NCBI GenBank assembly: GCA_010093815.1
Contig: ML996568.1
From: Pseudovirgaria hyperparasitica
Lineage: Eukaryota
Length of the DNA: 64,000 nt
Direction: 5' to 3' (one strand)
Shown here: in pieces, positions 1-45,623 of the stretch
How positions within the stretch are numbered: position 1 is the first letter of the stretch
How the letters are laid out: the number at the start of each line of letters is the position of its first letter
Position numbers and translations under genes: made by a program
Notes under the pieces: generated by a model
Told to the model about the DNA's origin: nothing
Seen by the model: the letters and a program-made list of their open reading frames with translations, nothing else
Database searches by the model: none

Positions 1-1
1 A

Positions 2-2821
2 GAAGCTATAGAAGTAAATAAGTCTACTATTAACTAAATTATCGCTATCTAGGACCCGTAAGAGTGATAGGACTATATTCTAGACACGTTTAATAATCTC
101 CTTTATATTACTAGCCTTATAGAATAGCTCTTAAGTAGTATAGTTAACCTCTTCTAGAAAGTAGGAGCCGTAATAGGGTATAGTAAGGTAAAGATTAACT
201 CCTCTATTCTAAAAGAAGTCTACGAGATAATTCGTCGTAGAAGAGATACTAACTCCCGTATTCTAAAAGCTAAAAATATAATCCTATAAAACTAGTAAAA
301 AGACCTCCCTAATAATAACGGCTAGTTACTCTAATCCGCCCTCGGACAGCTCTAGTAAATATAGAACTTTATAGAAAAGCTAGTAGCGCTCTTACGAATG
401 CGGATATAGGTGAGAGTAAGGAACTAGTTAAACGCATCTCTATAGTCCCGAATCGGCTAGGGATAGAAGGGAAGGGGAATTAAGGTATATCTTTAGAGCT
501 CTAATATCGATACTACCCTAGCTAGTAATAGTAATAAGGATAGTCTATCTCTCTAGTAACTCTCGAACTACCCTAGCCGATAAAATAAACTAATGTTCTA
601 TAATAAGACGGGACTTATTATCTCCGCTAGTTAATAGTTACGGATAAGTAGAATAGTTTATAGGCCTATTAAATACTACCTATAAATTAAAGAGATAAGT
701 ACATCGCCTCCGTCTTAGACCTTACTATCGCTAAAACTAGTATAGATAACGTCTACGGTAAAGTCCCCTCTACGAAGCACGCCTTCTAGTTTAGTAGTAC
801 GTCGTCTCTTCGAAGCTAGTCGTCCGTTTAAAGTAAGTATTCCTTCTACTACTACTAGTATATGTCTCTTACCGGGCCATGCGAGGACCTCTTTAGTATC
901 TATTACGGCCACGCCGATAAAACCCACTCATGGACGTGCCTTATCTACCGGCCCTTAGTAATTACTAGGGGCGCCTATATAATAATCCCCGGTTATTCTT
1001 AGTTCGTACCCTAAGACGATAGTATTAGTTAAGGAAGAGGACAAGCCTAAGAAATATTAATACACGCCTTTAGTAACGAAGACTTTTAAGGCAGCTATAT
1101 TATTAAAGAAGAATTTCACGAGTATTAAGGGAATGGCCCTACTAGTACGCTAGAAAGCGTAGATAGATAATATAGCTATTCCGTATAAAGTCTACTATAA
1201 GCATTACTAAGACGTGGCTAGAAAGAATAATATACTCGTTAGCGTGTTCTACTTAAACCTAGTAGCGAGACTTAAAATAGTATATAAGTTTAGAGATAAT
1301 ATAGGGGCCCTTAAAGTTTATAAGGACCGCTATACCTGGTTCGCGAAGTACGCGTAGCCACCTTATCCGATAGAGGCATTAGGTATCTATTATTACTAGG
1401 CCCTAGAGACCCCGAAGTAAGTTATTAATATTAAAACTATCCTTACTAGTATCGTATTTATAATTTAGAAGGAGGATAGTAGAATAGGTAGATAACTCTT
1501 TAACGAGTAGAAACGTACCGGAAGTGTTAACATTAAAGGGCTCTTCGAGCCACTTAAAAAGACGACCTCTATACTTAATAAGAGTATCCTAGAACTCGCG
1601 AGGGATGAATTTAATATATATAAGTACTACTAGCGTATATTTAATAAGAAATCGAACTACGGCTAGCTACGAACTATATACTACTCCTATATCTAATAGT
1701 TTATTAGGTAATATCTACTTTACTAGCTTACCTATGTCGCTCTTCGGCCTAATCTTAACTACTATCTAATCTCGTACCCGTACTATACGAAGTCCTAGAA
1801 TAGGGGCGATAAGACAGGTTTTAAGCATCTCAATAACGCCATTAATCGAATCCTCGATCCTAGCAATAGACACGGGTTTAATATAATCTAGGGGAGTATT
1901 AGTCTCGACGACGAACGAAGTAACGACTATACTATAATTATTCCCCACTCCTATAAGTTCTTAAATAAATAGTAGTCGAAGGCCAAGCTCCGCGAGGGGG
2001 TTAATCAAAATAGTATAATCACGGCTATTAACGATAAGATCTATAATACGGACGATAAGAAACGATTTAGTCCCTTTGTCCCGGTCCCCTACTAGTCCCT
2101 TAAAGTGCGTATCTCTAGCCTACTAATAATATATAGCGCCTAGGGTCCCGTAAAGGGTGGAAGACGTACGATGCTTCTATGGTATATCGCGATTAGCCCT
2201 AATCATATAATAATAGAAGTGCCTAAAATGGGCATATGGGAATAACTCGCAGTAGCTCATAGGAATTTAACTCTGGGACCTACGTCTCCGTCGGGATTTT
2301 CTAATAAATATAGCGCGATTCCTTTTACCTTCCTAGCTATAGTTTAACTCCCGAGTTTTAACGCCGTTAGTAACGTATTAGTCGGCTATAAAAGATAGGA
2401 TAGCTAGAAGGTAAAAGAAGAGGTAGCTACGTAGCTTAACGTAAGTCCTTAATAACTTAAAGCTAAGGTAGACGCCTAGTTTAAGGAGAGCTCGAGGGTA
2501 TTCGTGGAGACCTTTAAGAAAATAGTAAGGTAGGAAAGGCTAGTCTATAGGGATAGGTCGTTCTAGAAGGAATTTAACGAGGCGCGCGCCGCTAAGCGGC
2601 TAATTAATTTTAAGAAATTCGAGTCTAACGCGGGCCTAGATAATATTAAAGAGAACTTCTATAGATAGAAGAGGCCTAATGAACTATCCGATAAGGAGGA
2701 ATCTAACCTCTCTAAGATAAGCGACACGATTCTTTAGGAGCTAGCTCGCGACCTTAAGTACTAAGATTAGGCGCCTAAAAACCTACCTAATTATTAGTTA
2801 AGGGCTGCCCTTAACTAATAA
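2..2821 (+). pseudogene. RIP-mutated long ORF (>=940 codons, 5' end outside window) with a C-terminal 2OG-Fe(II)/PhyH-like dioxygenase domain
   Basis: Same frame at every point checked from 2 to 2821. De-RIPed motifs: YGWLRTMY...YVALRPD...LISYPYYTK...GFKH-L-D (HxD, ~1825), IQGSISLDDE, FVPVPC..EVRIS...MHG (distal His, ~2132), RRTMLPWY, SPSGFSNKYGAIPF. The frame ends TAA TAA inside the palindrome. Confidence 0.7.
2791..2821. repeat. 31-bp palindrome, copy 1 (ttattagttaagggc-t-gcccttaactaataa)
   Basis: Perfect 15-bp inverted arms around one central base; overlaps the end of the dioxygenase-like ORF. Confidence 0.95.
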
Positions 2822-3390
2822 TCCGGGCTAAGGTTTACCCGCGCTAAGAGGTTTACTAGGGGCGTATTTTATTCATATTAAGGTCTTTCTTTTAGGCGTT
2901 CTTTATACGGTTTCTTATATAGTTACTATACTACTAAGGGTAGTAGTTCTACGGGCTGGGGAGGTATATATAGAAGGCCGCTCCTACAGCCCTATATGTA
3001 TATGTCCCTAGCTCGATTATATAGCTTTATTATATATTTAAGGAGGGCGTTTTCCTTGGTTATTCTACTCGGCGCGCTTCCCCCATTACTAATATTCGAC
3101 TATTTAACCTTTTCTTACATTCATAGGCCTCTATAGGTATTAATTATTAGACTTAGCTATTAAAGAATTAATTAAGAGTATTATATAGACCCGTCCTATC
3201 GTAAAAGAGAACTAATAAGAAGTCGTGCGTTTAAAGAGAACTCATAATACCTAGAAGAGATACTTATGAGTTCGTCGCGACTACTATACTAGGAACATAG
3301 CCATTTATAAAAGGGACATACGTGGCGATAGCTTACTATAGTAGTATACCCACGACGTGTTAGGACACGCGCCTTTAAGAAGGGAGATAA

Positions 3391-3542
3391 TATTAGGCAC
3401 GTAAGGAGTACGTAGCCTACTAGTTAATTCTATATGTATATAGTAGTCATATATAAGTAGTATGCTCCACCCTTAAAGTAGTAGCTTTAAGATTCGGTCC
3501 TTTTAGTATAGTTAGTTAGTACGTAGAGCCTACCTCCTTACA
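3391..3542 (+). mobile_element. 3' LTR (with upstream polypurine tract) of an LTR element sharing its LTR family with the TRIM at 29363-29964
   Basis: Reverse complement of the TRIM LTR with a ~12-bp indel; starts tattag (de-RIP tgttag), ends ttaca; PPT aagaagggaga at 3377-3387. Confidence 0.85.
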
Positions 3543-3544
3543 TA

Positions 3545-3772
3545 TATTAGGACTTAGCCTTAGGTAGAACCCGACCTATATATACCTTAGCTAATAGGGT
3601 TAGAAGGTAATGTAAAGGGCGGTAAATAGTTACGTGCTAGATAGATCGGCGTCCCTTTATATATATACTCTCGGATTCCTACCGAAAGGGTTCGGTAGTA
3701 ATTCGTTCTATAATAGAATATACCCTATTATTCTATCTAACTATACTACTATCTAATAACCCTATTCTTATA
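3545..3772 (+). repeat. 5' LTR of Gypsy A
   Basis: Matches the split copy at 35240-35372/38293-38390; termini tattag...ttata are consistent with RIPed TG...CA. Confidence 0.9.
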
Positions 3773-5308
3773 TTTAAATTACTCTCTATATAGTACTATA
3801 GTTAAGATAGTCTAACTAGAACCGAGAAGGTCGATACGATCTACTATAGGGATAAGTAATACTATATTAAATAATAGGGATCCTCTATAATCGGTATTAA
3901 TCCTAGCCGTTTCTAACTAAGAAGTAGAAATATTAGACTAAATTACGGAGCTTTTAGACGAAGAAATAGTAGATACGCTAAGTAACTTCTAATAATATAA
4001 AGCCGGATAACGAGTTATGGCGGAGCCACGTAAGGTATTATAATAAACTATTACTAAACTTTAGGAATACGTCGCGAATTAGGCTCGAGAGATTTAAACT
4101 CTTAAAGAATAGATAGAATATACGAAACTCCTCGTAAAGAGATAAGAACTTAAGAAGTCTCTTAAAGAACTACGCTGAACGATAGTAGGTAGACGACTTT
4201 CTATACTAATTTAGGCGGAATTAGTTTACCTACCATTAGAGTTGCGATAATCTACCGTATACCTAGCCGCTTCGTTACTAATTTACTCTACTCCTTCCCT
4301 AGATATACTAAAATCTAAAGACCCGACTATATTTATAGGGAAGAACTAAAAGGAGTAGAAAGACTAGAAGAAAGACTATAAAAAGTACTTCCTTAATAAC
4401 TCTCTACTCTTTTCTACTAAAGTATAACGCATTTTATTCGGAGAACGATACCTAGACTTATAATCCCGCGATTAATAGGATAGATAGAAGGAAGTATAGC
4501 TACTATCTACGATAACCTAGGAATATTTAGCTATATTTATACTAAATACTCTCGGAACGGATAGAGAACGTGAAAGAAAGATACTATCTAAGTTAAGAAG
4601 CGTAGTATAACGACCGAACTAGACATCTACTTAACTACTATAATACCTCTAAAACCTATAGAATAATATCCCTACGCTATAGAAAAATATTTATATATTC
4701 TAGTTTCGCGAAGTACTACTTCCGTTAATCCGCGAAAGACTAGAAATAGTATTATTAAGTTTTAACTATCTATATGAATTAGAGGAGAAAGCTAATAAAT
4801 ACTACCGTATCCTTAAGGAACGCGGCTCTCTAGGTAAAACCGACGAACCCTATACGGGTTAGAAACGAGGTCGATTAAATACGTTTAATTAAGAGTAACC
4901 TTACCGCGATTAGTACTAGAAGAGCGTAAATCGGGGTAGAAACGCGTTAAGAGGATACTAAAATAATTAAGGCGGTGCTTCTTAACACGGAAAAGGATAA
5001 GACATAGGCTTAAATATAACGCCTATCGTAAAATAGTAGAATTATAGCGTACTTCGTTACTATAAGTATAATAATAATAATAATAATATTGTATAACTAG
5101 GTAGAGTAGTACTCTACAGGCCTATGCCTCCTCTAGTCTAAGCCACTATGTAAGAAGAAACCCTATAGAGAAAAACTTCCTTATATCTATAACTATATCT
5201 TATTAAACCTCTATTTCGTCTTAAGTATATAGCTATAGGGTACGCCTATTAGCCTATAGCCTATATTACCGTTATTTTACCCTTAGGTAGCACGTATAGG
5301 TGCGGAGG

Positions 5309-5339
5309 TTATTAGTTAAGGGCTGCCCTTAACTAATAA
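5309..5339. repeat. 31-bp palindrome, copy 2 (LINE ORF2 stop / 3' UTR)
   Basis: ttattagttaagggctgcccttaactaataa read directly. Confidence 0.95.
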
Positions 5340-6412
5340 TCGGGGTTCTCCCGGAGTTCTTCCGGTATATATCGGGTTACTACCGGCGTATACCGGGTCT
5401 CTTCCGGTATATATTTCTAGGTCTACTAGTACTAGAGGAGTAGTAGATATATAAGTATCTATCGGGAGACGTCCTTAGGGTACTTATTAAGCTATTATAT
5501 AATATCTAAAGTCTTTATAACGTGGATAAGCTATTACTATTATATATGGAGGTTAGGGTATATAGCTAGATAGTAGCGTATTATACCTCTCCGGCCGTAC
5601 GCCTTACACCATAGGGAGGTGTTAGGAACGCCTCTCTTATGGCCTCTAGTTCAGAGTTAGATAACTTCTATAGGTTCGACGTGCCCTATACCATTAGGCC
5701 CTACTCCTGTTTTCGCCTTATCTCATCCCCTCTAGGCTTATACCTCCGGCTCTACTAGGAGAGATAACTAAAGCCTCTCCTAGCTAGGTAACTACGAGGT
5801 TTACTCCTTAAACTTATAATACTAGCGTATATACCTTATAGGCGACACGTTCTATCTCTTTATAAATCAATACGTATATCCGTTCTCTCGGGCTATATAG
5901 TAGTCTCTCTAGCTAGAATATAATCCTATCTACTTCTAGATATACTAAGGGTTAGAGCCTATTAAAGGGGTAAGGTCCTTAGAGCTAGTAGTTACTACTA
6001 TATACCACGCCCCGCCTTTAAGCATTACTACTTTTCGGTTTCGCGTTACCTATAAGAATCTCTCTATAATAGGCCGACCATATCTTATAGGAGAGTATCC
6101 TCTAAATCCCTTACGTATATACGCCTAGGCGACTTAGGTATTCTCTTTCTACTAACCCGACTTATTTCTACTACTCTTAAAGGGTCCCTATAGCTACCTC
6201 CTACCTATATCTATATACTATTATCTATATACTCTAGTATCCCACCTCCTACAGTAGACTATAACATCTCTCGTACACGGGAGCCACTCTATCTATTAGT
6301 AGTAAAGTGGTATCTCGTATCGAGCGAAAGGTCTTAATAGAGTCGTGCTACTAGTAGTCGTACTAGGCGGCTTAATAAACGTAGTTTAATACTATAGGAG
6401 AGTTAGCTTTAA

Positions 6413-6972
6413 NNNNNNNNNNNNNNNNNNNNNNNNNNNNNNNNNNNNNNNNNNNNNNNNNNNNNNNNNNNNNNNNNNNNNNNNNNNNNNNNNNNNNNNN
6501 NNNNNNNNNNNNNNNNNNNNNNNNNNNNNNNNNNNNNNNNNNNNNNNNNNNNNNNNNNNNNNNNNNNNNNNNNNNNNNNNNNNNNNNNNNNNNNNNNNNN
6601 NNNNNNNNNNNNNNNNNNNNNNNNNNNNNNNNNNNNNNNNNNNNNNNNNNNNNNNNNNNNNNNNNNNNNNNNNNNNNNNNNNNNNNNNNNNNNNNNNNNN
6701 NNNNNNNNNNNNNNNNNNNNNNNNNNNNNNNNNNNNNNNNNNNNNNNNNNNNNNNNNNNNNNNNNNNNNNNNNNNNNNNNNNNNNNNNNNNNNNNNNNNN
6801 NNNNNNNNNNNNNNNNNNNNNNNNNNNNNNNNNNNNNNNNNNNNNNNNNNNNNNNNNNNNNNNNNNNNNNNNNNNNNNNNNNNNNNNNNNNNNNNNNNNN
6901 NNNNNNNNNNNNNNNNNNNNNNNNNNNNNNNNNNNNNNNNNNNNNNNNNNNNNNNNNNNNNNNNNNNNNNNN
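6413..6972. other. Assembly gap (560 N)
   Basis: Run of N; hides the left terminus of the Plavaka element. Confidence 1.
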
Positions 6973-7129
6973 TTATTATTCTAAATTATATCTTTAGTAT
7001 ATTTAATTATAGTCTTTAAATTTAATACTAGAAAGATAGTATATAATAGAGAGTAGAGGTTAAAAATTAATTAGACTAGGAACTTAAATTAAATAGTACT
7101 ATTCTAAGCTCTCTCCGACTATATAGCTA

Positions 7130-8920
7130 CAATAAAATGTAGTAGACCTTCCTTTCTTCTACCTTTGGGCGGTGTCCTTTATCTATTAAAAGGTGTCCTT
7201 ATCTAGAACTACCTTTAATGACCTTTTCTCCCACTAGACACTTCCCTCTATATTTCTAGTTACTGTTTTTATTCTCTCTTATATTATCTATTCGGCCTCG
7301 TGGTAGTCTATATAGTTCCCTAGCTATATACTAATATCCGACTTCTCTTGAAAGTATACACTCTTTATATATAGGTTAAAGACCTAACTTGAACGTCCGC
7401 CACCATCTAACTTCATTTTGATTTAAGTATCGGTCGGGGTAGATAGACTACTAGTTAAGGTAGCTATAACTAGGGATAATAAGTTAGTAATAGACTCATT
7501 CATACTACACGTATATATACTATCATTTACCGTTCCCGCGGTTACTTAGAGCGGGTCTATACTTAATACCCAAGATGGTATAATCTTATCCGTAGCCACT
7601 ACCAGTGGTGTAGAACTCTCACCCATATCTAATGGCGTATGAGATGATTCGAGGCACTTATCCAACTAGTTTAGAGTATCCGACTCATCCTTTTCGTAGT
7701 AGTTAGTATCTATATAGCCTCTATAACTTTAGTATATACTTATATTACCCGATAGCTTAGACTCCTCGCTCTCGTCTAAGTCATCCACATCTACTTTAGA
7801 GAAGTTATCTAGGTTATCTTTATATAGGTTTATATATATAGTGTCCGGGTCGATTAGTGTTAGTGCTATAAATACTAATACTATTAGTGATTTTTAAATA
7901 TAGTCGATACGGTAGGGCGCCTAGTTCGACTATATTAGGCTTAGCGCTCGCTATTCCTCTATATAATTTAGCACGCGATTAGATAAAGGTATATATATAT
8001 ACCTAGTATTAGTAGAGAGCGTGCGAATCTACAGCGACCGAAGGACGAGTTCGGCGCCCGCCCGCTACTATATTCGTTAAGGGCATGCCTTATTATAATA
8101 TATATAATAGTAATCATGGATAGTGGGATCGGTCGGAACATACTACTATAGTGCTCCTTCGATCTAAGGAATCTTAGGGACTATAGTAGAACTAACTTTA
8201 GAGCCTTAATTACTACTAGCCCTATGAATATTTTCCGAGTTACGCTAGTATTATACTAATAATTAGTAACACGTCTAACACGACGTAAGTAATATACCTT
8301 TACTCCTATATACGCGTTATTACGTATTAGGTTACTTATACTAGCTTTTCTCTTCTCGGCTATCTCCTAGTCCTAGTATTCGGATACCATCTACCTAACT
8401 CTAGAGAGGAGTTAGTAACGGAAGTCCATTATATCTTCCTTTACTAGCGCAATAATATGGGCGGGAGGTGTGTTTTATGAATTATAATTAAGGTAGTGGC
8501 CACTAAGATTAATATCTCCGGCGGCTATCTAGGCCGATTATACTAGTATCCTAAAACTATCTAGGCTACTATCTAGCTATATATTAAGGCGATCGAATAC
8601 CGGTGGTAACCGGCCTAAAAACGTTATGGCGATCGAAATCTCTATTATTATAAGGTACCGGTCTCGTTCGTAAGGCTAGAGACTATCTCTATAGGACCGC
8701 CTCTTTTCACGGATAGTTAGTTCCCTCTCTACTACCATTTCTCTACCTTCTTCTATCGAGCTAGATAGCTAATACGGTGGAGGAGAGGACGTAAGGCCGT
8801 TATATCCCCGGTTACTATTACGGTAGGATGTTACCGTGACGTCTAAGCTATATAGGGCGTTACTACTATATTCGCTACCGGTATACCTAGACTACTAGGT
8901 TGTTAGTAGATAAACGAACG
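7130..8920 (-). pseudogene. DUF6532-like gene (RIP-mutated), boundaries approximate
   Basis: De-RIPed reverse-strand translation at ~8040-8235: IFMGPAVIKALKLVL...G......MFRPIPLSMIAIIC..MRHALDEY.SG....SF, resembling the DUF6532 consensus; acidic stretch and basic C-terminus; divergent from the transposase. Confidence 0.55.
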
Positions 8921-14250: not shown

Positions 14251-14439
14251 TAACGAGTTATTACTAAAAACTATACGGACTACTCGCGTTAATGTAGCCG
14301 TAACGTACATGTTATATCTACGCCTATTATATAGTATATATATCTCATCTCTCTATCACCCTAGTAATATATACTATTCCCTATTCCGTCTACCTATAGC
14401 TACGTCCGGCCAGCCGCGAATAAATAGCCGAGTAGAAGC

Positions 14440-16614: not shown

Positions 16615-19600
16615 ATGGATCAAGAACTCGTTATATTTGGCGATATTTAGGACCAGTCTACACTCGACGTGATTAAGCCTTACGTTTAAGCCGAGTCTCA
16701 TATTCAAGTCGAGCCTTACGTTCAAGTCGAGCCTTACACTTAAGTCGAGCCTTACGTTTAAGCCGAGCCTTACGTTTAAGTCGAGCCTTACGTTCAAGCC
16801 GAGCCTTACGTTTAAGTCGAGCCTTACGCTTAAGCCGATCCTTACGTTTAAGCCGAGCCTTATACTTAAGTCAATCCTTACGTTTAAGCCGAGCCTTACG
16901 TTTAAGCCGATCCTTACGTTTAAGTCGAGCCTTACGTTTAAGCCGATTCTTACGTTTAAGCCGATTCTTACGTTTAAGCCAAGCCTCACGTTTAAGCCGA
17001 TCCTTATATTCAAGCCGAGCCTTACGCTTAAGTCGAAGCTTACGATACGACTACCGTCTCGACCGATAATAAACTACTTATCTTTAGTATACTTACCGGT
17101 AACTACCGTCCTAACGACGAGTATAAACTTAAGAAGGTCTAAAGTAGTAAGGCTCCCGTTCCTACTTACGCCACCTATTAGATCTCTCTTATATAGGGTA
17201 ATCTATAGTTAACCTTTAGGAATGTCTATAGTATTAGTAGAGAAATAGATAGACTTAAGTAGGAATAAGCGAAAACTTAAGCCGAGCTTAAGCTAGTAGT
17301 ATTTAAGGCTCGTGGTAAAGGTTACGGCTTCGAAGAGTCGATTAGTTATACATGTAGATTCCTTAAATTCCCTAAGTACCGCTCTTAGATTAAGTTACGT
17401 GCTCGCTTCCGATAGATTAACGAAGGGAAATCGGTATCCTTAATAAGCTTACTCCGCTTTAATCGTACTAACATCCTTCTATCGTCCGACCACCCTACGG
17501 TATAGATCTTTAAGGTTAAGTAAGTAGGCGACTTCATTAAGTATTTTCCTAAACTTCCTAATCTTATTATAAGCAAAGCGGATAAAGCCAATATACTATA
17601 TATTAATACCGGCCTCTACGAAGACCCTCGCGACTTTTAGATTATCGAACTTATAGCTAGCGAGCTTCTTGGTGTAGGTTTTACTATTCTATTATATATT
17701 AGACCCGATATAATATATAAACGAGTGAAGCAATTCTTCGAAGATCTAGGTGCTTATACTATAGTTTGTATCTTGCTACTACTACGTGACCCTATGGATC
17801 TTACCGGCTTTAATAATAAGCTTAAACTAGAGAGCGATCCGATTAATTCATGGCATGTAGGAGTTACTACTCCCTATATATAATACGGTATAATAAGTAG
17901 GCCGGACACTTAGCCCTAGATCTCTATTCCCCACCGCGAGTCATTTAATAAGAAATTCGACTACCTAATATATATCGCTATAAGTACCTTATAAGACGAA
18001 TAGGCGGATCTCCCATTATCCTAATTCCAAGACGTTACCGTCGGGTATATCTAGCTCTCAGGTGTTACTCGGGCGCTCTTGGCTATCGTCTATCCTATTA
18101 ATACGAAAGGATTCCATCGTATGGAACCAGGTAGTCGTGGGTACCTTAAAGTAGATTTAAAGGATTATAATGACGACGCGTACCGCTTTAAAGTCCTTTA
18201 ATTTTGCCTAGGCGTCCTCCTATTCGAATACCTCGCTCTAAAAGTCTTTAATAAGGTTAGGCGTCCTCCTAAAGCATCTAAGGTACCGATTATATTAATA
18301 GATGCGGTTACTAATATAACTCGAGCTCGTCCTAAACATTTCATTCGGACTAGCGACACTAGTTTAAGTATAATTAGGTCATCCCTTACTACGCTCATGG
18401 GGTTCACGGACGTTCCGGCTTTAGTTAGCGTATAAACCTATGATAAGCTTACTAAGTAACGCATTAATACGTGCTAGAAACTAACCTACCACGCCATGTA
18501 AGCTCCTAGAGACGGCGGCGTAGACGACCACGCCGCTTAGAATGCGTTTAATGCGATAGTCCTTAATGTTATCGTGGACTCGGTGTCTATATCTCTAATG
18601 TATGGGTCCCCTAACCCTAACGATAAGATTCTAGATTATAGTACGGAGCCTTAGGATACCCTCGTTACTCTTTCTAAATTATCTATATCCCTAGATAATA
18701 ATAAGGACACGAATATAGAATATAGTCACGATGTTATTAGCGACGAAGGTTCCATTACTAGCCCCGTCGCCGATACACACACACTCCTAATATCATCCAA
18801 AGTCCACTCTAGTATCCTATCCCCTTTGCCACCCTCCGTATAGAACCTAATACTCGGTAATAACTACCTGAATCTTTAACCCGTTAACTATAACCGCTAC
18901 GTTAAAGATCATGAAAGATTCTATAATCTCTAGGATATCATACGTTCGGAGCTATCTCCCTAATAATAGTATACCTATATATAGACGACGGACGCACTTA
19001 GGGCTTAGTTTCTACTTCACGGCTATGGAGGAGCTAGGAAGAGCCATTTATGGCTTCGTCTACTACTAGCTACACTTCTAATTAATAAAATGAACGGTGC
19101 TCCTGTTATCGCTCATACTACCAAGGTAGTTATCCTATCTAGCGATGTGACAGCGCACCTCCCTACGCTAGGTTCCACCTAAACATGTAGGATATATATA
19201 TATGTTATTATCGGCCTAACTAACGAAACCTACGACGACGCTATAAGAAAAGCATATAAATATACGAGTAATATATTTACTCGCTATAAGTCTCTAAAGA
19301 TACCGGTCGTTCTTCGAAGATGCCCCGAAGCCGTTAATCGAGAGGTTTTCTTTACTATAGCTAGACTATCTCGTCGCGGCGACCCTCTTATCGGGCTAAC
19401 CTAGAATAATATAATAGGCGGTGCCATCCTCGTGTAAGCCTAGGCCGACTATAGTAAACGACCATCGGAATATAGCACGGATCCCCGTGCTCGTCTATAG
19501 AAACTATATACCGGTTACATTACGCTCGAGGTCGTTAGACTCGTTAAATCTCGATACTAATACGAATAGATCCCTAAGAATTTCGAGAAAGAAACGGCTC

Positions 19601-35372: not shown

Positions 35373-38254
35373 CTACGAAGCCTTACGAACCGCGTCCACG
35401 TCGTTATAGCTAGGCAATGCCTCTATAGAGGTAGTAAGAGGTTCAGAGCGGCGTTAATAGCGACCTAGTCATCGCTAGATAGATGGTTAAAGAGTTTTCG
35501 CGGAGCGTCTACCTTACTAAACTATACTAATATAACCTAGCTAGGGAAGTATATACTTCTATTCTATCCCTAATTAACGCGTTAAGAGAAGTTCACGAGG
35601 ATAAAGGGATAAGAAAACCACCTAACGCGCTACTACTATGTCGAAAGCAGGCCTAAATCTATCTTACTAACTAGATAGAGGAAGCGGAGATCCTAGTAGC
35701 GCGATAGAATACCTTAAGGCTTAAACGGCTCTAGAAACGTAAGGAACACGTCGAGGGTAACTAAGAAACTACTACTAGAAGAACTTATTAAAGCTAACTC
35801 TCCTATAGTATTAAACTACGTTTATTAAGCCGCCTAGTACGACTACTAGTAGCACGACTCTATTAAGACCTTTCGCTCGATACGAGATACCACTTTACTA
35901 CTAATAGATAGAGTGGCTCCCGCGTACGAGAGATGTTATAGTCTACTATAGAAGGTGGGATACTAGAGTATATAGATAATAGTATATAGATATAGGTAGG
36001 AGGTAGCTATAGGGACCCTTTAAGAGTAGTAGAAATAAGTCGGGTTAGTAGAAAGAGAATACCTAAGTCGCCTAGGCGTATATACGTAAGGGATTTAGAG
36101 GATACTCTCCTATAAGATACGGTCGGCCTATTATAGAGAGATTCTTATAGGTAACGCGAAACCGAAAAGTAGTAATACTTAAAGGCGGGGCGTGGTATAT
36201 AGTAGTAACTACTAGCTCTAAGGACCTTACCCCTTTAATAGGCTCTAACCCTTAGTATATCTAGAAGTAGATAGGATTACGTCCTAGCTAGAGAGACTAC
36301 TATATAGCCCGAGAGAACGGATACGTATATTAATTTATAAAGAGATAGAACGTGTCGTCTATAAGGTATATACGCTAGTATTATAAGTTTAAGGAGTAAA
36401 CCTCGTAGTTACCTAGCTAGAAGAGGCTTTAGTTACCTCTTCTAGTAGAGCCGGAGGTATAAGTCTAGAGGGGATAAGATAAGGCGAAAACAGGAGTAGG
36501 GTCTAATGGTATAGGGCACGTCGAACCTACAGGAGTTATCTAACTCCGAACTAGAGGCCCTAGGTACTAGAGCGAATATAGAGAGACGGCATGCGGCATC
36601 CTACAAGGGAGCACCATCTCTCCAATCCTATTCCTCTTCTTTATAGTAGACCTTCTTTAAGGAATAAAGTATATAGAGGTAGTCGGATACGCCGATAACA
36701 TATACCTTCTAGCCATCGATAATAATACTAACCGAACGTATAGACGACTAGAATAGGACTACGAGAGGTGTCTCTAGTGGGTAAAACGCCACGGAGTAAA
36801 GTTCGCCCTAGAGAAATACTAGCTCATGCACTTTATTAATCGTTAAGAGAAATAGGTAACTAGGGAAGGCGAATAACGCCCCTAAATCAACGCATTTAAT
36901 GAACTACTAGTATAAAGTATACACGCGCTCGGAGTTATACTAGATAGTAAGCTTAAATAGGGACCATAAGTAGTATATACCGTCTCTAGGGCCCTCCGGG
37001 TAGAAGCCGCTATATAACGGATTATAGTCTCTACGTAGAGAACCGCCCGGGATAAGGTACGCCAGCTATATATATCTATAGTACGACCCGCCTTTACGTA
37101 CGGACACGAGTACTAGTACACGGCCCTTATATAGACTAGGCGAATAAAGCTCGAATCTATATAGAACCGTATACTCCGTCTTATATTAGACGTATATAAA
37201 GCTACTAATACGATGCTACTACGACGCGAGATAGACGTTATAAGTATATATAACTTCTACTAGATATAGAGGGTGGTATACTTTACTAAATAATAAGTAT
37301 AGAAACGTATAGAAAACGCAGAATATACTTTCGCCGCGCTATATGTACGAATTAGTATATATTACCGCGCACTTCTATATATAGACCGGAATCGAATACG
37401 GTATAGGTGCTTAATAGAAGCCGACTCTAGCTAAGTAGTATAAGAAGTCCGAGACAACCCGGACGCTCTCCTAGACCGGTAGAGCCTTTAAGAACTTATA
37501 AAAAATATACGGTCGTGGACTTAAGATAAGTAGAAAGAGGCACTCCGTGCCTACTAGACCTCCTAGTAGAATAGATACCTAGAGTAGATTCGAGGGCCAT
37601 AGAAGGAACTAAGTAAATAGATATATAAAGGGCTAACGAAAGCCTAAGTATCTATACTTATCTAAGCCCGAACGGGCGCCATAGAACTCCTATACTATAT
37701 CTATAAGAGAGGCGTTCCCGACACCTCCCTATAGTATAAGGCGTACGGCTAGAGAGGTATAATACGCCACTATCTAGCTATATACCCTAACCTCTATATA
37801 TAACGGTAATAGCTTATCCACATTACGAAGACTTTAGATATTATATAATAGCTTAATAAGTACCCTAAGGACGTCTCCTAATAGATACTTATATATCTAC
37901 TACTCCTCTAGTACTAGTAGACCCGGAAATATATACCGGAAGAGACCCGGTATACGCCGGTAGTAACCCGATATATACCGGAAGAACCCCGGGAGAACCC
38001 CGATTATTAGTTAAGGGCAGCCCTTAACTAATAACCTCCACACCTATACGTGCTATCTAAGGGTAAAATAATAGTAATATAGGCTATAGACTAATAGGCG
38101 TACCCTATAGCTATATACTTAAGACGAAATAGAGGTTTAACAAGATATAGTTATAGATATAAGGAAGTTTTTCTCTATGGGGTTTCTTCTTATATAGTGG
38201 CTTAGACTAGAGGAGGCATAGGCCTATAGAGTACTACTCTACCTAGTTATATAA

Positions 38255-38274
<20 letters not shown>
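35373..38274 (+). mobile_element. Composite non-LTR retroelement copy 2 (5' module 35373-36559 + ~1.7-kb LINE 3' end) inserted in the 3' LTR of Gypsy A
   Basis: TSD ttatatatatactctcgg at 35355-35372 and 38275-38292; (TAT)n tail; LINE part starts mid-RT (GI.QGSTISPILF, VGYADD) and ends with a C-terminal zinc-finger-like motif and the palindrome. Confidence 0.9.
38004..38034. repeat. 31-bp palindrome, copy 3 (LINE ORF2 stop)
   Basis: ttattagttaagggcagcccttaactaataa; the apparent ORF2 C-terminus reads through it to a tandem stop. Confidence 0.95.
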
Positions 38275-38286
<12 letters not shown>

Positions 38287-40803
38287 TCTCGGATTCCTAC
38301 TAAAAGGGTTTGGTAGTAATTCGTTCTATAATAGAATACACCCTATTGTTCTATCTAACTATACTACTATCTAATAACCCTATTCTTATAGTTAACTCGA
38401 TTTAATCGTAGGGTATATACTATTAAGACCGATTTTCTATTATCGATCTAGCGGAAACGGCATCGCAGGGTAATCTTAGAACGGTGTTTAGGGAAATCAA
38501 GTATCTCGCAAGAACATAAGATTAATTATTTAAAACCGTATCCTTTACTACGCGCCTCGAATATAGCTTCTTCGATCTCGGTCTATGTTTATTCAATTAC
38601 TTCCTCGCTAGTAACTATAGCGTTATAGAGGTCGGCGAATATAAGATAAATATCATTCTAAGTAAGGGAGACTTAACATAGAAAGTAATCTAGTACTAGT
38701 ACTTTTAAAGGTCGGACTCCGGCGACTTTATACTCGTTGTTTAGACGGTAGTCGCTAGTAATAGTAGTAAAGAGCGGTGGCTCGTCTATGGCTAAAGAGA
38801 CTTTAGAAGCACTATTATTAGAAAGGTTATTATAAGGCGTAGCAGATTCAGTGGCTACGACTTTATCTAGGTTTTCTATAATACCATGAATTAATTCTTT
38901 ACTATCCATGATAAGGCGCTCCGTACTCCCGTATAATTTGGTTTCTTAACTAATGGAAGATATACTAAAGATATTAAGTATATTATGTATTAAAGTAAAA
39001 GAGAAGAGAGATAAATAAAAGGTAAAGTTTAATACCAAGACGTCTAAAGGAAGCGGTGGTTAATAGAGCTAAAGTAACGGTAGCTAAGGTAATAAGGTTA
39101 AGGGTAGCTCGTTAGGAATAATATTTACTATACTCGCCTAAATTAGTACGACTATTACGTAAATAACGTAAGGGATATCAACGTAAATAGGGAGTAAAAA
39201 CATTATAAAGGAAAATCATAGAAGGTAGAAATATATCGAACGCTAAAGAGGATTACCTAGCTAGCACGTAATTTCTTTAAACGTTTACGTGCGTTAAAGG
39301 CTACTACCATTTTAGATATATTACGTATTAGATCCGATTTACGTACCTAGTCTAGCTTATCGTAGCCCTTCTATATAACTTTAAGGTAAGATACCGCTTT
39401 AGTTTCACCTTCTAGGCGCCGTAACCTACGGGCTAGTATTTAATTAATAATATAGGCGGCTTCGCCCTCGATTTCTTTAATAGAGCCGGGGTCGCGAATT
39501 AATCTATTAAGAGTATCTAGCGTATATAGTTCGAGGTAAGTAATTAAGATAACCGGGTGAATTTTAACGTGTTTAGGGAGTTCGAGTCGGAAGGTAACCT
39601 AAGTAACTTTCTCGAGTACCTTATAGAGACCGACTTTCTCTAGATTAAGGTAGGACATTAAGAGTAATCGATACCCTTTAGTACTAGGCTTACGTATAAC
39701 TTTTAGCTAAACCTAATTATCTATATTAACCTTACTATAACGATTATCGAAGAAGATTACTATTTTAGCTTAAGCGACGGTTATTATCTCTTTAGCCTAA
39801 TTACGGATGTCTTAGCGGGATAGAGTAAAATCTTCCGCCGATTACTCGTTCTTATTTAATGGCTAGGATAGTATTATTACTATTATCGGATCCCTTAGGC
39901 GTACACCGTACATAAGTTCGAATGGGGTTTTATTCGTTATAGAACTCGTTATCGTTAGTAAGGTGTATTCCACTATTAGGAGTAATTCATCCCATTCTAT
40001 AATATTCTTATTCTCCTTAATAATTAAGTATTAAAGGATTATTTCCACGGTTAAATTTATCCGTTCGCTCTACCTATTTGCTTTAGAATTATAGGCTACG
40101 GTAACTACTATTATAACCCTTATAATATTAAATAGTACACGCTAGAATTAGCTTAGAAATCGCGAATCGCGATTAGAGATAATAACCTTTAGTATGGTCT
40201 AACTAGCGACGACGTAGTCATGAAAACCAACTACCCATTCCTATGTAGTCTAAGTATCCTTCCCGGGTATAAGCTTAACTCCTTTAGTAAATTTATTAGT
40301 AATAGTAAGGTACTAATTAAAGCCGTTAACGGTTATTAGTAGTCCTATAATAAAGTCTATTAAGATTGTATGAAATGGTATTAGAGGAGTAACTACTAGT
40401 ATTAATTCCCCGATTGGTTGTCTATTTAATACTTTAGAGGCGCTATAAGTAGGGTATTAGTTAATATAGCCTCGTACGTAATCTCTAAGCTTTAGAATAA
40501 ATAGATTCTACTATAGACGAATATATATATCGTTTATATCTCGATATCTACCTTTAGTATAAGCCTAATCTATAATAATAATATTAGTAAACTAGGTAGA
40601 GTACCACTCTATAGACGCATGCCTCCTCTAGTCTAAGCTACTATATAAGAAGAAACCTACGAATAGGAAAAACTCCCTTATATCTATAACTACGCTCTGT
40701 CTATCCTCTCGTTCTTTATATATATATAGCCCTAGGGCTACCCCTAGGCCTATAGCCTATATTATAATGGTTTACCCTTAGGTAGCACGTGTAGGTACGG
40801 AGA

Positions 40804-40834
40804 TTATTAGTTAAGGGCTACCCTTAACTAATAA
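40804..40834. repeat. 31-bp palindrome, copy 4 (LINE ORF2 stop)
   Basis: ttattagttaagggctacccttaactaataa (one RIP-type change at the centre). Confidence 0.95.
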
Positions 40835-43800
40835 TCGCGGTTCTCCCGGGGTTCTTCCGACGTATACCGGGGTTCTTCCGGTATATATTAGGCTTCTTCT
40901 AGTATATATACGCGGGTCTACTAGAACTAGGGGAGAGGAAGGTGTATAAGTATCTATCGGGTAACGTCCTTAGGGTACTTATTAAGCTATCGCGTGATAT
41001 TAGAGGTCCTCGTTATATAGACGAGGGCTTATCTTAGGGTATAGAGGCTAGAGCACGTCGCGAGGTAGTAGTATATTATACCTCTCCGGCCGTAGTCCTC
41101 GTACTAGAGAGATATATCTAGGACGCCTCTCTAGTAGAGGTAATATAGGAGACCTATAGCGCCTATTTAGGCTTAGAGGAGTATAGATGCTTAGGCCTTT
41201 ATTAGCCCTTTATATATCTATTTACTCGGTTCCTTCTAAGGCCCTCGGATCTATTCTAGATACCTATTCTATTAGGAGGCCCACTAGGCTTTAAGTACCT
41301 CCCTCTATTTACCCTAGATCTATAACCGTATAACGCGGCTAAGCTCCTTAGGGCTCTATTAGCTTAGGATAGCATCCGGGTTATTTTAAACCTTCTACGC
41401 GGTCTAGCTTAAGTCCGCCTCTATATAGTATTTATATTATACTCGAGTTTATTCTATAGTAGAGAGGGCCTAGTAATACGCGCGGATACGTATACGTAGT
41501 ACGGCGAAGATATATACTCTATCTCCTCTACGTTCTTATACTTATTATTTAGTAAAGTATATAAGTCTCTATATCTAGTAGAAGTTCTATATACTCGTTA
41601 CGTTTATCTTACGTTAGAGGAGTATCGTATTAGTAGCTTTATATACGCTAGAGATAAGGCGGAGTATACGGTTTTATATAGACTTAAGCTTTGCCCGCCG
41701 AGCTTATATAAGGGCCGTATACTAGTACTCGTGTCCGTATATAAAGGCTAGGCGTACTAGGGAGACGTATAGCTATCTCGCCTTATCCTAGGCTATTCCC
41801 TACGTAGATACCGTAATCTAGTATATAGCGGTTTCTATCTAGAGGGCTCTAGAGACGGCGTGTGCCACCTATGGTCCCTATTTTAGCTTATTATTAATTA
41901 TAACACCGAGTGCGCGTATACTCTATACTAGTAGTTCTATAAAGGCGTCGATTTAGGGGCGACGTGTCCCCTCCCTAGTAGTCTATCCTCTATGGCGGTT
42001 AATAAAGTATATAAGCTAGTATTTTTTAGGTGCGAATTTTACTCTATGGCGCTTTACCTACTAGACGCATTTCTCGTGGTCTCGTTCGAGTCGTGTATAT
42101 ATTCTACTAGTACTACTATTAACCGCGAGGAGGTATATATCGTCTACGTATCCGACTACCTCTATATATTCTATTCCCTAAAGGAGGTCTACTATAAAGA
42201 AAAGAAAGAGAATCGGGGAGATGGTACTCCCTTACGGGATGCCATATACCGTCTCCTTATATTTACTTCGGTATCCGGGGATATATATTTAAGTAGTCCT
42301 TTACGCGAGGAAGGACTATATAAATTATATAATCTACTTAGGTATTCGCCTTATCCGGAGGTTATAGATAAGTCTTATATAGTTTACCTTATTAAACGCC
42401 CCTACTATGTCTAGGGAGAGTAGCGTAACGACTCGTCCTTATTTCTATATAGTCTAGATAACCTCGAGGATATATTAAATAGCTATAATTAGGGAGCTTC
42501 CTACCTTCGCCTTCTAGTTTACTAGAAGAAGGCCGTGTACCTATACTACTATACTTATCTTCTTAGTAATTATAGCTTCTAGTACCTTACTAAGGTAGGA
42601 GAGAAGGGCGATTAGCCTCCATCCCTTCGGCGTGTTTAGGCTCTTCCCTAGTTTTAGAAGTATAACCGTGTATATAGTTCGGAAGCTCTATAGATGGTAT
42701 CCTATACGGGCGCACGCTCGGAATATATAGCCTATAATTAGTAAGGTCGCCTATATGGTCCTCTTAAGGCATCGATTCGGAATTCTATCTAGTCTAGGCG
42801 CTTTATTATTCGGGAGTATCTTAATAGCGCCGAGTATATCGTTGTCCGTAATTTCCCTAGAGATACTTATAGCTTCCGGGTATTCTATGCCGTCGATATC
42901 TAATAGGTCTACGGGTTCTAGGAGAGGGAATATAACCTCTTATAGGATCTCTATTTTCTCGAGGCTTATAGAGTACGTCTTTTCTTAATATATAAGGGGG
43001 GGTATAAGTGGTGTAGGTGTCGGGGAGGCGGTGCTTTTAGCCTATTTTACTATATGCCATAGTCTAGTAGTATTACGTGTATATCTATCCGTGACTATAT
43101 ACTACTATTTACGTCGCTCGTTATAGAGGACCTTATCTTATTATTTTCTCGCCTCTCTCTATTTATCCTATACTTTAGATATATAGTTATAGTATACGCG
43201 TGTATATAATCTCTAGACTTCTTACCTATGCTCTCGTACTTAAGGTATACTTTTCGGGTCTAGAGGTCTATATATTTAGTACGGCACGTGTTTATCTCTT
43301 ACTCCCTAGTATACCTATAGAAGTATATTCACGGCCTAGTCGATGGCCGGGCCATTAGATATATTAACTATAGACGGGTCTAGAATCGTCGATTCTAGGT
43401 CCTTTAGGTACTTTTCCTAGTTAGTATCCTTCTATAGCTATCGCCCTCGTTAGTCTTAAGGGGTAGATACGTCTATTACGGTCTCCATGTATTCGTGGTC
43501 GGAGTCTATCTATATAAGGCTTAGGCGGTAGTATTAAGTCCTATTATAAATGTGTCTAGTGGCTAGAGTAAGGTCGAGTATAGATCCGCCCTTATCTTAT
43601 TTATATTTTCGCTAGGTAATCTATTCTACTAGTATAAGAAGGTATAGGAAGCCATAGTATTAGGTGCGTAGTTCTCTAGCTCGAAGCTCTTCGCGGGTAA
43701 CGGTTAGTCTACCCTACTAGCTATAATAGAGGTTAAAGTCTCCTAGGAGGATGTATTATCCTAGCTTAGTAGTACCCTTAAGTATATTATCCGCCTAAAG

Positions 43801-45592
43801 TAATCGGTTCTAATTATATATATTATATATATAGAGGGGTCCGATATTCGTCTAGAGGTATAGTATTATCTAGAGGTTATCCCGTTTAGTATACAACTAT
43901 AATAAGAGTAGAATAGACTTATAGATATGGAAGAGGACTCTCCTCTCCGGTCCTAGGGGGTGTATTATATAATATCCTAGGTATGTTATTGGTTTGTTCG
44001 TCTAGTAGTGTTTATATAGCTCCTATATAGCGAGTATTATAGCTCCGGTCTCCTCGAGGAGTATCGCCTAGTTCTTACGTTTATACTATACGTTTACCTA
44101 TATAATTAGGAGTATATCTTGGTCTCTTATTAGGTGCTAGGGAATATATAGACCTATATATTTATTCCTCTAAGACGCGACTATCCTCGTACGGCGGCGG
44201 CCTTAATAATTCCTTAGGGCCGTCCTATTATTAGCTTTCTTAGAATGGTTTACTATTCCTAACCGCTTCCTTATAAGGAGATAGTCTATAGTAGTAGTAT
44301 TATAGTAAAGAGAGGAATAGTAGTAGGTCGTATCGTTTATAGCTACCTTACTCCCTTTATCCAGATTAAGTGGATATATTTAGTAACCTATTTACGTTTC
44401 GCGCACGTAGTCGACTACGACGGGTACTTACCGTCGTAGTTAGAGTACTTCGCCGTGTCTCTATCCCTCTAGCCCTCTCCTTATATCCCGTGGGGGCACT
44501 TCTAGGTACTATATTCTTATTAATACCACCTATACCTAGTCTTTTAGGAGTACCGCTGTGCCGTATACCCGTATCCCTAATAGTTAAAGTACTATATTAT
44601 TACCTATGCTCTATCCTATGGTTCCGCCATAAGAAGCTCCCCTTCCGCTAGGAATCTCTCTTATATAATTTAATACGCGAGGGCGGGGTCCTTAAGCTCT
44701 ACTATTATAGTAGAGTGTGCCTTTAATCTAGTTTTAATCCCTTATATATTCTTCTACTATACTCTTACGATCTTAATCCCTAGGTATTTTCGCTCGTTTA
44801 ACTATTCTATCCGCGTGATATCCTCTTCTCTAATAACCTATCCGCTTATAGATATAGAGTATACCTATATTAGGTATGTGGCCGCCCTAATAGAGGCGCC
44901 TAGAAAGATACTACTAATCGCGTTCGGATCGCGCGAGATAGTCTACTACGCGATATTCGTTATCGTGGTAAGTACTACTCCTTCTAGCGTGAGTTTAGCG
45001 GTAACGATATTTAACTATATTCCCTTTTATTCGTTAATCTTACTTACTATATCCTTTAGGGATACTTACTAGACCTATACTAGGGTGTCCTTATCCTAGA
45101 TTATAACGTATATACTACACGCCACGTCGCCGGTCTAGGGGGCCCGTAGTATAGCCTCTAGTATTACTACTATTTATATCTATATACTAGGGCGCTTACC
45201 TTAAGTAAGTTCCTCCTAGATTCTACGTAGGCTAGCCTCTATTTAGTCGAGCCTACCCTCCGGTCCTCCTAGTTATATCTTCTTCTCCTCCTCTATAATT
45301 CACTTTAGATTCTAGATAAGATTCTAGAATATATATAGAAGGGTCTTCTAGCCCTCTCCGGCTTCCTTCTCTATACGTGCTACCTAGTAGTTAATATAAT
45401 CTAGAAGGGTTTCCCCTCTCGGGGTCCCCTTTATTCTATCTATCTATAGCGGCGTGCGCCTTTAGGTGTATTCTACGTTTTAGATAGGTATATAGTTACC
45501 CTTAGTAATATCGCTATATAGCCTTTTCTATCGTACTAGTAGGGGTATATCCGGTATATACTAGGGTATATCGGTACCTAAGGCCGCCATAT

Positions 45593-45623
45593 TTATTAGT
45601 TAAGGGCTACCCTTAACTAATAA
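45593..45623. repeat. 31-bp palindrome, copy 5 (LINE 5' UTR, 2 nt upstream of the ORF1 ATG)
   Basis: Same sequence as copy 4, but in unrelated flanks. Confidence 0.95.

Follow-up and report, generated by a model that had tools for sequence, protein, structure and literature searches.

How does one and the same 31-bp palindrome come to lie in unrelated mobile elements of a single genome, and what might it do there? The question is raised by a 64,000-nucleotide stretch of contig ML996568.1 (assembly GCA_010093815.1) of Pseudovirgaria hyperparasitica, hereafter the window, in which an original prediction, made from the sequence alone, had placed five copies of the palindrome TTATTAGTTAAGGGC-W-RCCCTTAACTAATAA (hereafter the 31-mer) at the borders of open reading frames (ORFs) belonging to such elements. 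All five copies proved exact where they had been placed, without a mismatch on the plus strand (Table 1), and at up to three mismatches the window holds five sites (ten strand matches) against none in 100 dinucleotide-preserving shuffles. The 31-mer is self-complementary, being built of 15-nt arms around a single central base. This centre, which on the plus strand reads CTG in the copies at 2791 and 5309, CAG in the copy at 38004 and CTA in those at 40804 and 45593, is both its sole remaining CpA/TpG and the only site that varies among the copies. A search of the window at up to two mismatches per half-site gave no further copies or half-sites except two unrelated 15-mers, and within the 64 kb no copy lies outside retroelements. 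Four of the copies belong to a long interspersed nuclear element (LINE), and the fifth, at 2791, follows a dioxygenase ORF that is probably part of a Ty3/Gypsy element. We take the 31-mer to be a fixed component that two unrelated families of retrotransposons in this genome carry and pass on, and an identical palindromic module in a long terminal repeat (LTR) retrotransposon and a non-LTR retrotransposon is unusual. The carriers had been described as unrelated mobile elements, which holds for the LINE and the probable Ty3/Gypsy element as such; both are retrotransposons, however, and the sharing therefore does not extend across DNA-transposon classes.

The shared unit has sharp edges at 31 nt across the five copies. 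When the copies are oriented so that the centre is T, the only sequence common to them outside the 31 nt, and to four of the five only, is a following TC; in this orientation the upstream ORF lies on opposite sides of the 31-mer in the LINE and in the Gypsy-type element. The copies at 5309 (minus), 38004 (plus) and 40804 (minus) have common flanks that mark the same position of the LINE, whereas the flanks of the copies at 2791 and 45593 differ. Smith-Waterman comparison of the three resulting contexts, in nucleotides and in a purine/pyrimidine code and in both orientations, gave no score above the largest of 200 shuffles per pair; none of the three contexts is related to another, nor is the 31-mer itself bordered at any of the five copies by a target-site duplication (TSD), tail or terminal motif. 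The unrelated flanks and the lack of a TSD agree with what had been noted from the sequence. Since an identical unit occurs in unrelated contexts, we infer that a discrete piece was transferred at least three times. Our preferred reading, which we hold tentatively and with less than even confidence, is that the 31-mer is a discrete palindromic module that was copied between retroelements and acts as a hairpin or dimer-linkage element. That the repetition has no biological meaning, and reflects chance, an assembly artefact or local gene conversion, is hardly credible: arms saturated by repeat-induced point mutation (RIP) would keep their identity more easily, but 31 exact bases recur in three unrelated contexts and were never matched in the 100 shuffles, and contigs from X1 and X2, two DNA runs, extend over the palindrome together with its flanks.

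Self-comparison of the window reveals three copies of one LINE (40554-45623 and beyond, minus; 36558-38275, plus; 5057-5640, minus). The identification as a LINE was borne out by Pfam searches, in which stop codons of the LINE and dioxygenase translations were read as X: RVT_1 was found in ORF2 with an E-value of 1.9e-17 and 64.1 bits (cut-off 29.6) in translation P0005 and with an E-value of 2.6e-08 in P0003, and Exo_endo_phos_2 with an E-value of 8.5e-05 and 22.8 bits, which is under the Pfam cut-off of 27.4. The ORF2 homologues P0007-P0009 bear PF14529/PF03372. Remnants of CCHC motifs are present at the C-terminus of ORF2 and, as zinc knuckles, in ORF1. Membership of the Tad1 clade is presumed from the overall architecture. 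The longest copy is bounded by a 10-16-nt duplication and is therefore a full-length insertion of 5290 bp, to which both of its palindromes are internal. The three LINE 3' ends align for ~240 nt past the palindrome, up to the (TAT)n tail; a simple-repeat tail of this type is thus present on all three copies, and the duplication at the full-length copy. The copies fall, as predicted, into two diverged subfamilies (75-76% identity), and the 5' palindrome of the full-length copy does stand 2 nt before the ATG of ORF1, as had been remarked. A tandem repeat directly before the 3' palindrome (21 bp x 3; Table 1) holds mini-palindromes of the CCGGTATATACCGG type, and kindred CGGTATATCGG motifs surround the 5' copy.

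Other known arrangements that would place a palindrome in such elements were considered and rejected. Were the palindrome the target or TSD of a site-specific LINE, it would flank the element at its insertion junctions; the actual duplication is 242 nt further out than one palindrome and 228 nt further out than the other, and a palindrome is missing from the 5' junction of the truncated copy. A miniature inverted-repeat transposable element (MITE) or another DNA transposon with terminal inverted repeats was ruled out by the lack of a TSD at the five copies. As for the 3' hairpin of a Helitron, CTAA follows 6 nt after the copy at 2791 only, with no CTRR at a like distance at the LINE copies.

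The ORF before the copy at 2791 was examined by homology and by structure prediction. Searched with HMMER against 1.84 billion representatives, the frame that ends at the palindrome (P0002) has 560 homologues at E-values of up to 1e-3, 292 at 1e-10 and 91 at 1e-30; these are ~900 aa long and match P0002 residues ~358-855. They share the motifs F-R-H-I-D-x-N, P-H-G and R-R-T together with a C-x-C...C-x-x-H cluster. In the numbering of the homologue P0018, H630, D632, H730 and R740 correspond to the metal triad and the 2-oxoglutarate (2OG)-binding Arg, and like C382, C384, C425 and H428 they show little or no variation; the catalytic Asp reads Asn in the window copy, a RIP-type change. Pfam recognised no family in nine of ten homologues, with one weak PhyH hit and one precomputed PF05721 hit, and none in 1-5057 of the window (eight translations covering the six frames). 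The AlphaFold model of P0018 (mean predicted local distance difference test, pLDDT, 75.7; >90 over much of 380-890) has a helical N-domain at residues 1-204 and a disordered linker at 205-369, followed by a C-domain predicted with confidence, and Foldseek matched the C-domain with a probability of 1.00 and target-normalised template-modelling (TM) scores of ~0.5-0.6 to proline hydroxylase, SnoN/SnoK, EctD and DUF1479. The ESM Atlas returned only generic PhyH clusters (score 0.91). By its predicted fold, then, the ORF encodes a PhyH-type 2OG-Fe(II) dioxygenase, in keeping with its earlier description as dioxygenase-like, which the homologues with their conserved H-x-D...H...R motifs had also borne out. 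The LINE proteins match nothing in 1-5057, and the copy at 2791 is accordingly not a small LINE fragment, an origin that the original prediction had named as part of what would count against it.

To place this ORF in an element, we scanned metagenome contigs with an alignment of the dioxygenase family, which gave 311 relatives, of which 80 loci were kept; our evidence base is the window together with these contigs, which carry no taxon labels and whose Gypsy content and RIP-like decay suggest a fungal origin. In L006 and L008, which have a GC content of 0.51-0.52 and intact ORFs, the dioxygenase gene (L006:3767-6724) lies directly behind a same-strand pol of at least 1135 aa with the domains RVT_1, RT_RNaseH, Integrase_H2C2, rve and SH3_Tf2-1, and L058 has an integrase upstream. 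tblastn with the pol of L006/L008 gave hits in 34 of the 80 loci, and pol stands directly upstream of the dioxygenase gene on the same strand in at least five lineages (the L006 family, L020/21/32, L036, L042 and L058). Small LINE fragments occur near the dioxygenase genes of only two of the 80 loci. About 30 RIP-like copies of the L006 family in one metagenome have a common sharp 3' boundary ~330-590 nt behind the gene, which is where an LTR end would be expected. Because the homologous ORF lies directly behind a Gypsy pol in at least five lineages, the copy at 2791 is probably at the junction of the internal region and the 3' LTR of such an element, and by the same analogy the dioxygenase ORF of 1-~2700 is probably an accessory gene in a high-copy Ty3/Gypsy element, the pol of which would be situated to the left of the window.

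Sequencing runs provide further information on this element. X1 and X2 are DNA runs from one sample, which may be the window's own source, and their contigs cover every bin of 1-6400 with 20360 and 7120 pieces, mostly differing from the window by RIP-type transitions, which confirms the high copy number of the element at 2791. Summed depth is 121k in the bin 2569-2782, 189k in the one after it and 281k in the next, a rise of 1.6-2.4x, and many contigs break at 3340/3341, a repeat boundary. Among the 12 joints listed none skips 2791-2821, that is, no empty site was seen, which is weak evidence because the contigs are short. These data bear on an explanation by LTR structure, in which the 3' LTR would open with 15 nt formed by the right arm of the copy at 2791, counted from the central TG, and the left arm would be a complementary stretch in the place of the polypurine tract. 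The palindrome would on this view be a structure of the LTR-terminus or integrase-att type that the LINE acquired by recombination. The depth step at ~2783, a C-TG-C centre that permits an LTR starting with TG and a short purine run, AAGGG, in the left arm are all compatible with it. We nevertheless consider it very improbable, as there is no matching inverse terminus at 3340, no second LTR copy within the window, and no account of the two copies that sit inside LINE untranslated regions (UTRs) with LINE-specific flanks.

Mobile elements that bear accessory 2OG-Fe(II) dioxygenases are on record, and in this respect the element resembles the orchid Ty3/Gypsy elements with an AlkB domain and the fungal DNA transposons with TET/JBP that are described in PMC9289625 and PMC12730594, respectively; unlike those carriers, it has a PhyH-type enzyme in a separate ~900-aa ORF behind pol, in fungus-like, RIP-affected elements. 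Literature searches found no description of a PhyH-type dioxygenase ORF behind a Ty3/Gypsy pol: none of the papers on PhyH/phytanoyl-CoA dioxygenase among the matches listed mentions 'LTR retrotransposon', and in the passages of the Blastomyces genome paper that name them, dioxygenases appear only as metabolic genes. Stand-alone homologues of the dioxygenase have among their neighbours a DUF6589 protein, DEAD/Helicase_C helicases and an SNF2-related protein (L031:5682-8523; L017:4884-6917; L043:6511-9375; L015:8188-9543), and in two loci DEAD/Helicase_C helicases are convergent with the dioxygenase gene.

Whether the 31-mer belongs to coding sequence depends on where the ORFs before it ended. 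The 31-mer, as read from its sequence, contains a stop codon in all three frames of both strands, and therefore any reading frame terminates there. Given these stops and frames riddled by RIP (72 stops in the 940 codons of the dioxygenase frame and 124 in the 1300 codons of the LINE ORF2 frame), it cannot be established that the palindrome 'ends' the dioxygenase ORF and ORF2, as had been proposed. Six distant ORF2 homologues (23-33% identity) end ~47-58 residues past the CCHC motif, in agreement with a double stop that is found 38 codons before the palindrome end in both LINE subfamilies, and the native ORF2 stop is probably ~83 nt upstream of the palindrome. Similarly, homology of the dioxygenase ORF stops at 2563-2599 and the tails of its homologues run 31-38 residues further, on which basis the native stop would be expected at about 2680-2700, with ~100 nt between it and the palindrome. 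Since the C-termini of the homologues suggest that both native stops lie upstream, a C-terminal peptide shared by the two proteins, which the original prediction had put forward, is unlikely. Every copy of the 31-mer is probably transcribed but non-coding.

The window is strongly RIP-like over 1-52000 (TpA/ApT 1.59-1.84; (CpA+TpG)/(ApC+GpT) 0.19-0.34), the corresponding values at 52-64 kb being 0.71 and 1.25. The two LINE subfamilies differ by 296 transitions and 116 transversions over ~1.7 kb, and 27 of 1704 windows of 31 nt have at most one subfamily difference, the palindrome being one of four such clusters. On this sequence comparison the 3' palindrome copy is older than the split of the two subfamilies. 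Runs X3 and X4 carry the same species label and cover only 10 of the 30 bins of 1-6400. A loose end of an X3/X4 contig at 5383 reads ACTAATAA; as this contig is itself RIP-like, it does not settle the pre-RIP form of the 31-mer. An unmutated copy of the 31-mer did not come to light, and a degenerate pattern that covers RIP forms and the inferred pre-RIP form matched no stretch in JGI metagenome contigs. Likewise, six 12-13-mers of the 31-mer and of its inferred pre-RIP form had only unrelated occurrences in the openly available literature.

Table 1. Features of the window that bear on the 31-bp palindrome.
Feature	Coordinates	Strand	Remarks
Palindrome copy 1	2791..2821		Centre CTG; behind the dioxygenase ORF, at a rise in read depth
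Palindrome copy 2	5309..5339		3' part of a deleted LINE copy (LINE sense minus)
Palindrome copy 3	38004..38034		Behind ORF2 of the 5'-truncated LINE copy, plus strand
Palindrome copy 4	40804..40834		Behind ORF2 of the full-length LINE (sense minus); 228 nt to the 3' end of the element
Palindrome copy 5	45593..45623		5' UTR of the full-length LINE; 2 nt before the ORF1 ATG; 242 nt to the 5' end
RIP-mutated ORF of a ~900-aa protein with a C-terminal PhyH-type 2OG-Fe(II) dioxygenase domain (predicted)	2..2700	+	Homology 1067-2599; start may precede the window
Second palindrome, 22 nt, 1 mismatch, halves GCCCTTAGTAAT and TACTAGGGGC	951..972		Dioxygenase ORF at ~codon 317, disordered linker
Probable 3' LTR or truncated part of one	2822..3340	+	Depth 1.6-2.4x that of 2569-2782; boundary 3340/3341; analogy with other lineages
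Full-length Tad1-like LINE	40576..45865	-	ORF1 from 45590; ORF2 with putative APE-type endonuclease, reverse transcriptase and C-terminal CCHC; (TAT)n-type tail
LINE TSD, 5' copy	45866..45881	-	10-16 nt; shared string TTATAGATTAGGCTTA in LINE sense; first bases may be tail
LINE TSD, 3' copy	40560..40575	-	Duplicated string
5'-truncated LINE copy, second subfamily	36558..38278	+	75-76% identity to the full-length copy
Third LINE copy, 3' end	5057..5640	-	95% identical to 37703-38275
Tandem repeat, 21 bp x 3	40846..40908	-	Between the probable ORF2 stop and the palindrome; also 37929-37991 and 5358-5413

Although the 19-nt core of the 31-mer was absent, at up to one mismatch, from the 80 related loci, palindromes of other sequence are frequent around the homologous dioxygenase genes. 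We took a census (arm of at least 11, at most one mismatch, loop of up to 3, non-low-complexity) of 40 non-redundant loci comprising 225,314 nt, which left out the RIP-like copies L044-L080, with the exception of L047, L049, L058, L059 and L078, and eight near-duplicates (L005, L008, L019, L021, L023, L024, L032 and L041). The 40 loci contain 32 palindromes, 27 of them with a one-base centre, against zero to four in ten block shuffles; this excess over shuffles may be particular to the dioxygenase family or general to those genomes. Their sequences are lineage-specific and their architecture is common, with AT-rich outer arms and a GC-rich core. Several loci have one palindrome at several places in unrelated flanks (four in L017, three in L031, two in L014, two around the gene in L059 and seven in L010). 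Gene-proximal palindromes are mostly in probably transcribed DNA, namely in the linker of the ORF, 27-61 nt past the stop or 87-247 nt upstream: seven of the nine in-ORF palindromes fall at codons 245-320, i.e. in the linker modelled as disordered, and six of the 19 full-length dioxygenase ORFs have a strong linker palindrome. In the intact loci L006 and L008, a 27-nt palindrome lies after pol and ahead of the dioxygenase ORF.

Individual loci illustrate the arrangement of these palindromes. L017 (2659, 4506, 6942 and 7023) and L004 (6587) share a 27-nt family, GATTT-NN-CCCGCC-S-GGCGGG-NN-AAATC, with four copies in 8.4 kb of L017. Of these four, one follows the dioxygenase stop by 15 nt, another is within the linker, and the remaining two have a DEAD/Helicase_C gene and a small ORF close by; in their variation the NN pairs behave like independent half-sites. 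In L059, near-identical 61-63-nt palindromes (20-80 and 3135-3197) lie 194 nt upstream and 553 nt downstream of the dioxygenase homologue, in the manner of cassette borders. L010 contains a 27-29-nt palindrome five times at 63-nt spacing upstream (1453-1730) and twice at 57-nt spacing in the linker (4640-4723). In the window itself, the arms of the 951-972 palindrome resemble those of the 31-mer in permuted order.

The reading that we prefer, a module that passes between retroelements and works by folding or self-pairing, can be set out as follows. The 31-mer would have passed from element to element on at least three occasions, without a TSD being left behind, and its carriers would then have spread it passively. 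With the native stops of ORF2 and the dioxygenase ORF putatively ~80-115 nt upstream, all copies would be transcribed and non-coding, and the 31-mer would be kept because of its service to the elements. In retroelement RNA or single-stranded complementary DNA it may act as a very stable hairpin: the predicted fold is a 14-16-bp stem, and 90-nt windows around the copies give -26.8 to -36.9 kcal/mol (z -2.9 to -4.3, 200 shuffles). Since a palindrome pairs with any copy of itself, the 31-mer could also serve as a dimer- or end-linkage element, whereby the 5' and 3' copies of one LINE RNA could pair or two RNAs, including RNAs of both families, could be joined. Retroelements of this kind typically encode CCHC chaperones, and the hairpin might be handled by such zinc-knuckle proteins, of which remnants are seen in LINE ORF1, the Gypsy gag being outside the window. 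The 5' copy occupies the region in which retroelements have their packaging and dimerisation signals. We rank hairpin formation or self-pairing first because both carriers replicate via RNA, because CCHC chaperones are typical of them, because of the placement of the 5' copy and because the copies can pair.

Two known systems come close to this. 'Stringent-type' LINEs have a 3' UTR stem-loop that is recognised by their own reverse transcriptase. Like these stem-loops, the 31-mer forms a stable LINE 3' UTR hairpin that is a possible cis signal and could be shared with other RNAs using that machinery; unlike them, it is a perfect palindrome 228 nt from the tail rather than adjoining it, and it is also present in the 5' UTR and in a non-LINE element without a LINE tail. 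Among papers on palindromes in fungal retrotransposons or nuclear genomes, the only relevant one that we found concerns the Conserved Hairpin Site of GalEa (Copia) elements in fungi, a 9-bp palindrome at the primer-binding position beside the 5' LTR which, in the sections of the paper that deal with it, is discussed for priming and dimerisation (PMC5445492). The GalEa site and retroviral dimer initiation sites resemble the 31-mer as hairpin-forming palindromes at an LTR-internal junction, the 31-mer differing in its length of 31 bp, its location on the 3' side of a probable Gypsy element and its identical occurrence in a LINE (PMC5445492).

Several points weigh against our preferred reading. 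Identity of the 31-mer across contexts requires a transfer mechanism that we cannot name. Rfam has no known RNA family that matches it (no match at gathering score over the 64 kb, and none at E-values of up to 1 in 45300-45950, the region of the 5' copy). Orientation relative to the upstream ORF is opposite in the two carriers, and a sequence-specific loop would therefore differ between them. Conservation of the palindrome between the LINE subfamilies is modest, being in the top 1.6% of windows and not unique, and RIP saturation alone could explain its identity there because the arms have no CpA/TpG left to mutate. In the related loci, a palindrome (stem of at least 11) at -60 to +450 nt of the stop was found at only 3 of 74, against a background of 77 of 1047 windows, and the arm variation in L017, at two positions per arm, is not compensatory, which is easier to reconcile with a DNA site bound by a protein than with an RNA stem. 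Finally, the Gypsy assignment is made by analogy, as pol and paired LTRs are not within the window.

The sharp 31-nt edges in three unrelated contexts without a TSD are also what would be seen if the 31-mer were an ultra-short selfish DNA unit with no role for its carriers, which might insert as a snap-back hairpin during repair or in trans via some enzyme, survive only where it is harmless (UTRs, junctions, disordered linkers) and then be amplified with its carriers. We regard this as possible, if doubtful. Palindromes of the same style recur in other lineages, often several per locus in unrelated flanks (L017, L031, L014, L059 and L010), their excess over shuffles is strong (32 against 0-4, with 27 of the 32 having a one-base centre), and the location of seven of nine in-ORF copies in the disordered linker is as a tolerance filter predicts. 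The density of palindromes in the linker, however, is ~4x that of the flanks (7 in ~10.8 kb against 0.15/kb), which suggests more than tolerance; the three insertions would each need to have struck an active master copy, one LINE being hit two times and the other family once; the contigs covering 2791 show no empty site and the 64 kb no copy beyond retroelements; and such a unit has no known mechanism or enzyme.

Short palindromes whose core is GC and whose outer parts are rich in AT, located at gene borders and sometimes in frame within genes, are familiar as the GC-cluster/PstI-type palindromes of fungal mitochondria and the repetitive extragenic palindromic (REP) sequences of bacteria. The palindromes described here are like them in having lineage-specific sequences and a common architecture, but the 31-mer is nuclear, is located in RIP-mutated retrotransposons and has no known mobilising enzyme. 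With MITEs and foldback elements it shares an inverted-repeat structure, many copies and a non-coding nature; unlike MITEs it has no TSD or internal sequence, and its total of 31 bp is far below the size of known MITEs.

The behaviour of the L017 arm variants, which combine like independent half-sites, is more readily accommodated if the palindromes are DNA sites for a dimeric factor. This might be the Gypsy-borne dioxygenase itself, acting on chromatin or nucleic acid, for example against silencing, and the LINE would have captured the site and thereby gained from it as well. Lineage-specific palindromes of common architecture accompany dioxygenase homologues at many loci, in the window itself there is a palindrome within the linker of the dioxygenase gene as well as one downstream of the gene, and both the C382, C384, C425, H428 cluster and the catalytic H630, D632, H730 and R740 are conserved. 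On the other hand, the predicted fold matches small-molecule and amino-acid hydroxylases of the PhyH type and not TET/JBP or AlkB, no DNA-binding domain is recognised (the nine of ten homologues without any Pfam family), and in the intact loci L006 and L008 a different palindrome is found elsewhere, between pol and the dioxygenase ORF. We therefore think that such a site is unlikely. A more specific version is clearly improbable. In it, the PhyH-type dioxygenase of fungal Gypsy-type retrotransposons would cooperate with a palindromic 'address tag' peculiar to each genome, which the protein or one of its partners would recognise in DNA or RNA before modifying a nucleic-acid or chromatin mark close by, and elements bearing the tag would thereby evade silencing. 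Here the LINE would have taken over the tag, with a copy on either side of its coding region, and the palindromes in and around the homologous genes of many lineages would be tags that co-evolve.

The remainder of the window is consistent with a repeat isochore beside a gene-type isochore, as at 52000-64000 there is an abrupt shift to a GC content of ~0.46-0.53 with normal dinucleotide indices. The RIP-like region contains arrays of an 18-bp repeat (x20.5, 16676-17044) and a 234-bp repeat (x3.8, 24188-25079), and a run of N (assembly gap) at 6413-6972 is inside its repeat-rich part. A 775-bp repeat, present at 5638-6412 and 35788-36562 with 97% identity, adjoins the LINE 5' truncation at 36558 in one copy and LINE position 37703 in the other, and these junctions may reflect either a deletion from the junction or two nested insertions. 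Over 3341-3850 and 5640-6400, X3/X4 contigs differ from the window by A>G at 62 positions and T>C at 40, compared with C>T at 4 and G>A at 6; having G or C where the window has A/T, they indicate that less mutated, possibly expressed copies of these other repeats exist.

Two further leads emerge from this work: PhyH-type dioxygenases as a widespread accessory gene of Gypsy elements, and the excess of odd-length palindromes around that family. As for the 31-mer, a selfish nature would make it the counterpart, in eukaryotic nuclei, of REP and GC-cluster palindromes, at the lower size limit of proliferating units. If it is functional, it would be a cis signal common to an LTR and a non-LTR retrotransposon, pointing to cross-talk between families that are thought to replicate independently, whether via packaging, dimerisation, hitch-hiking or some factor, of the host or of an element, that both use.

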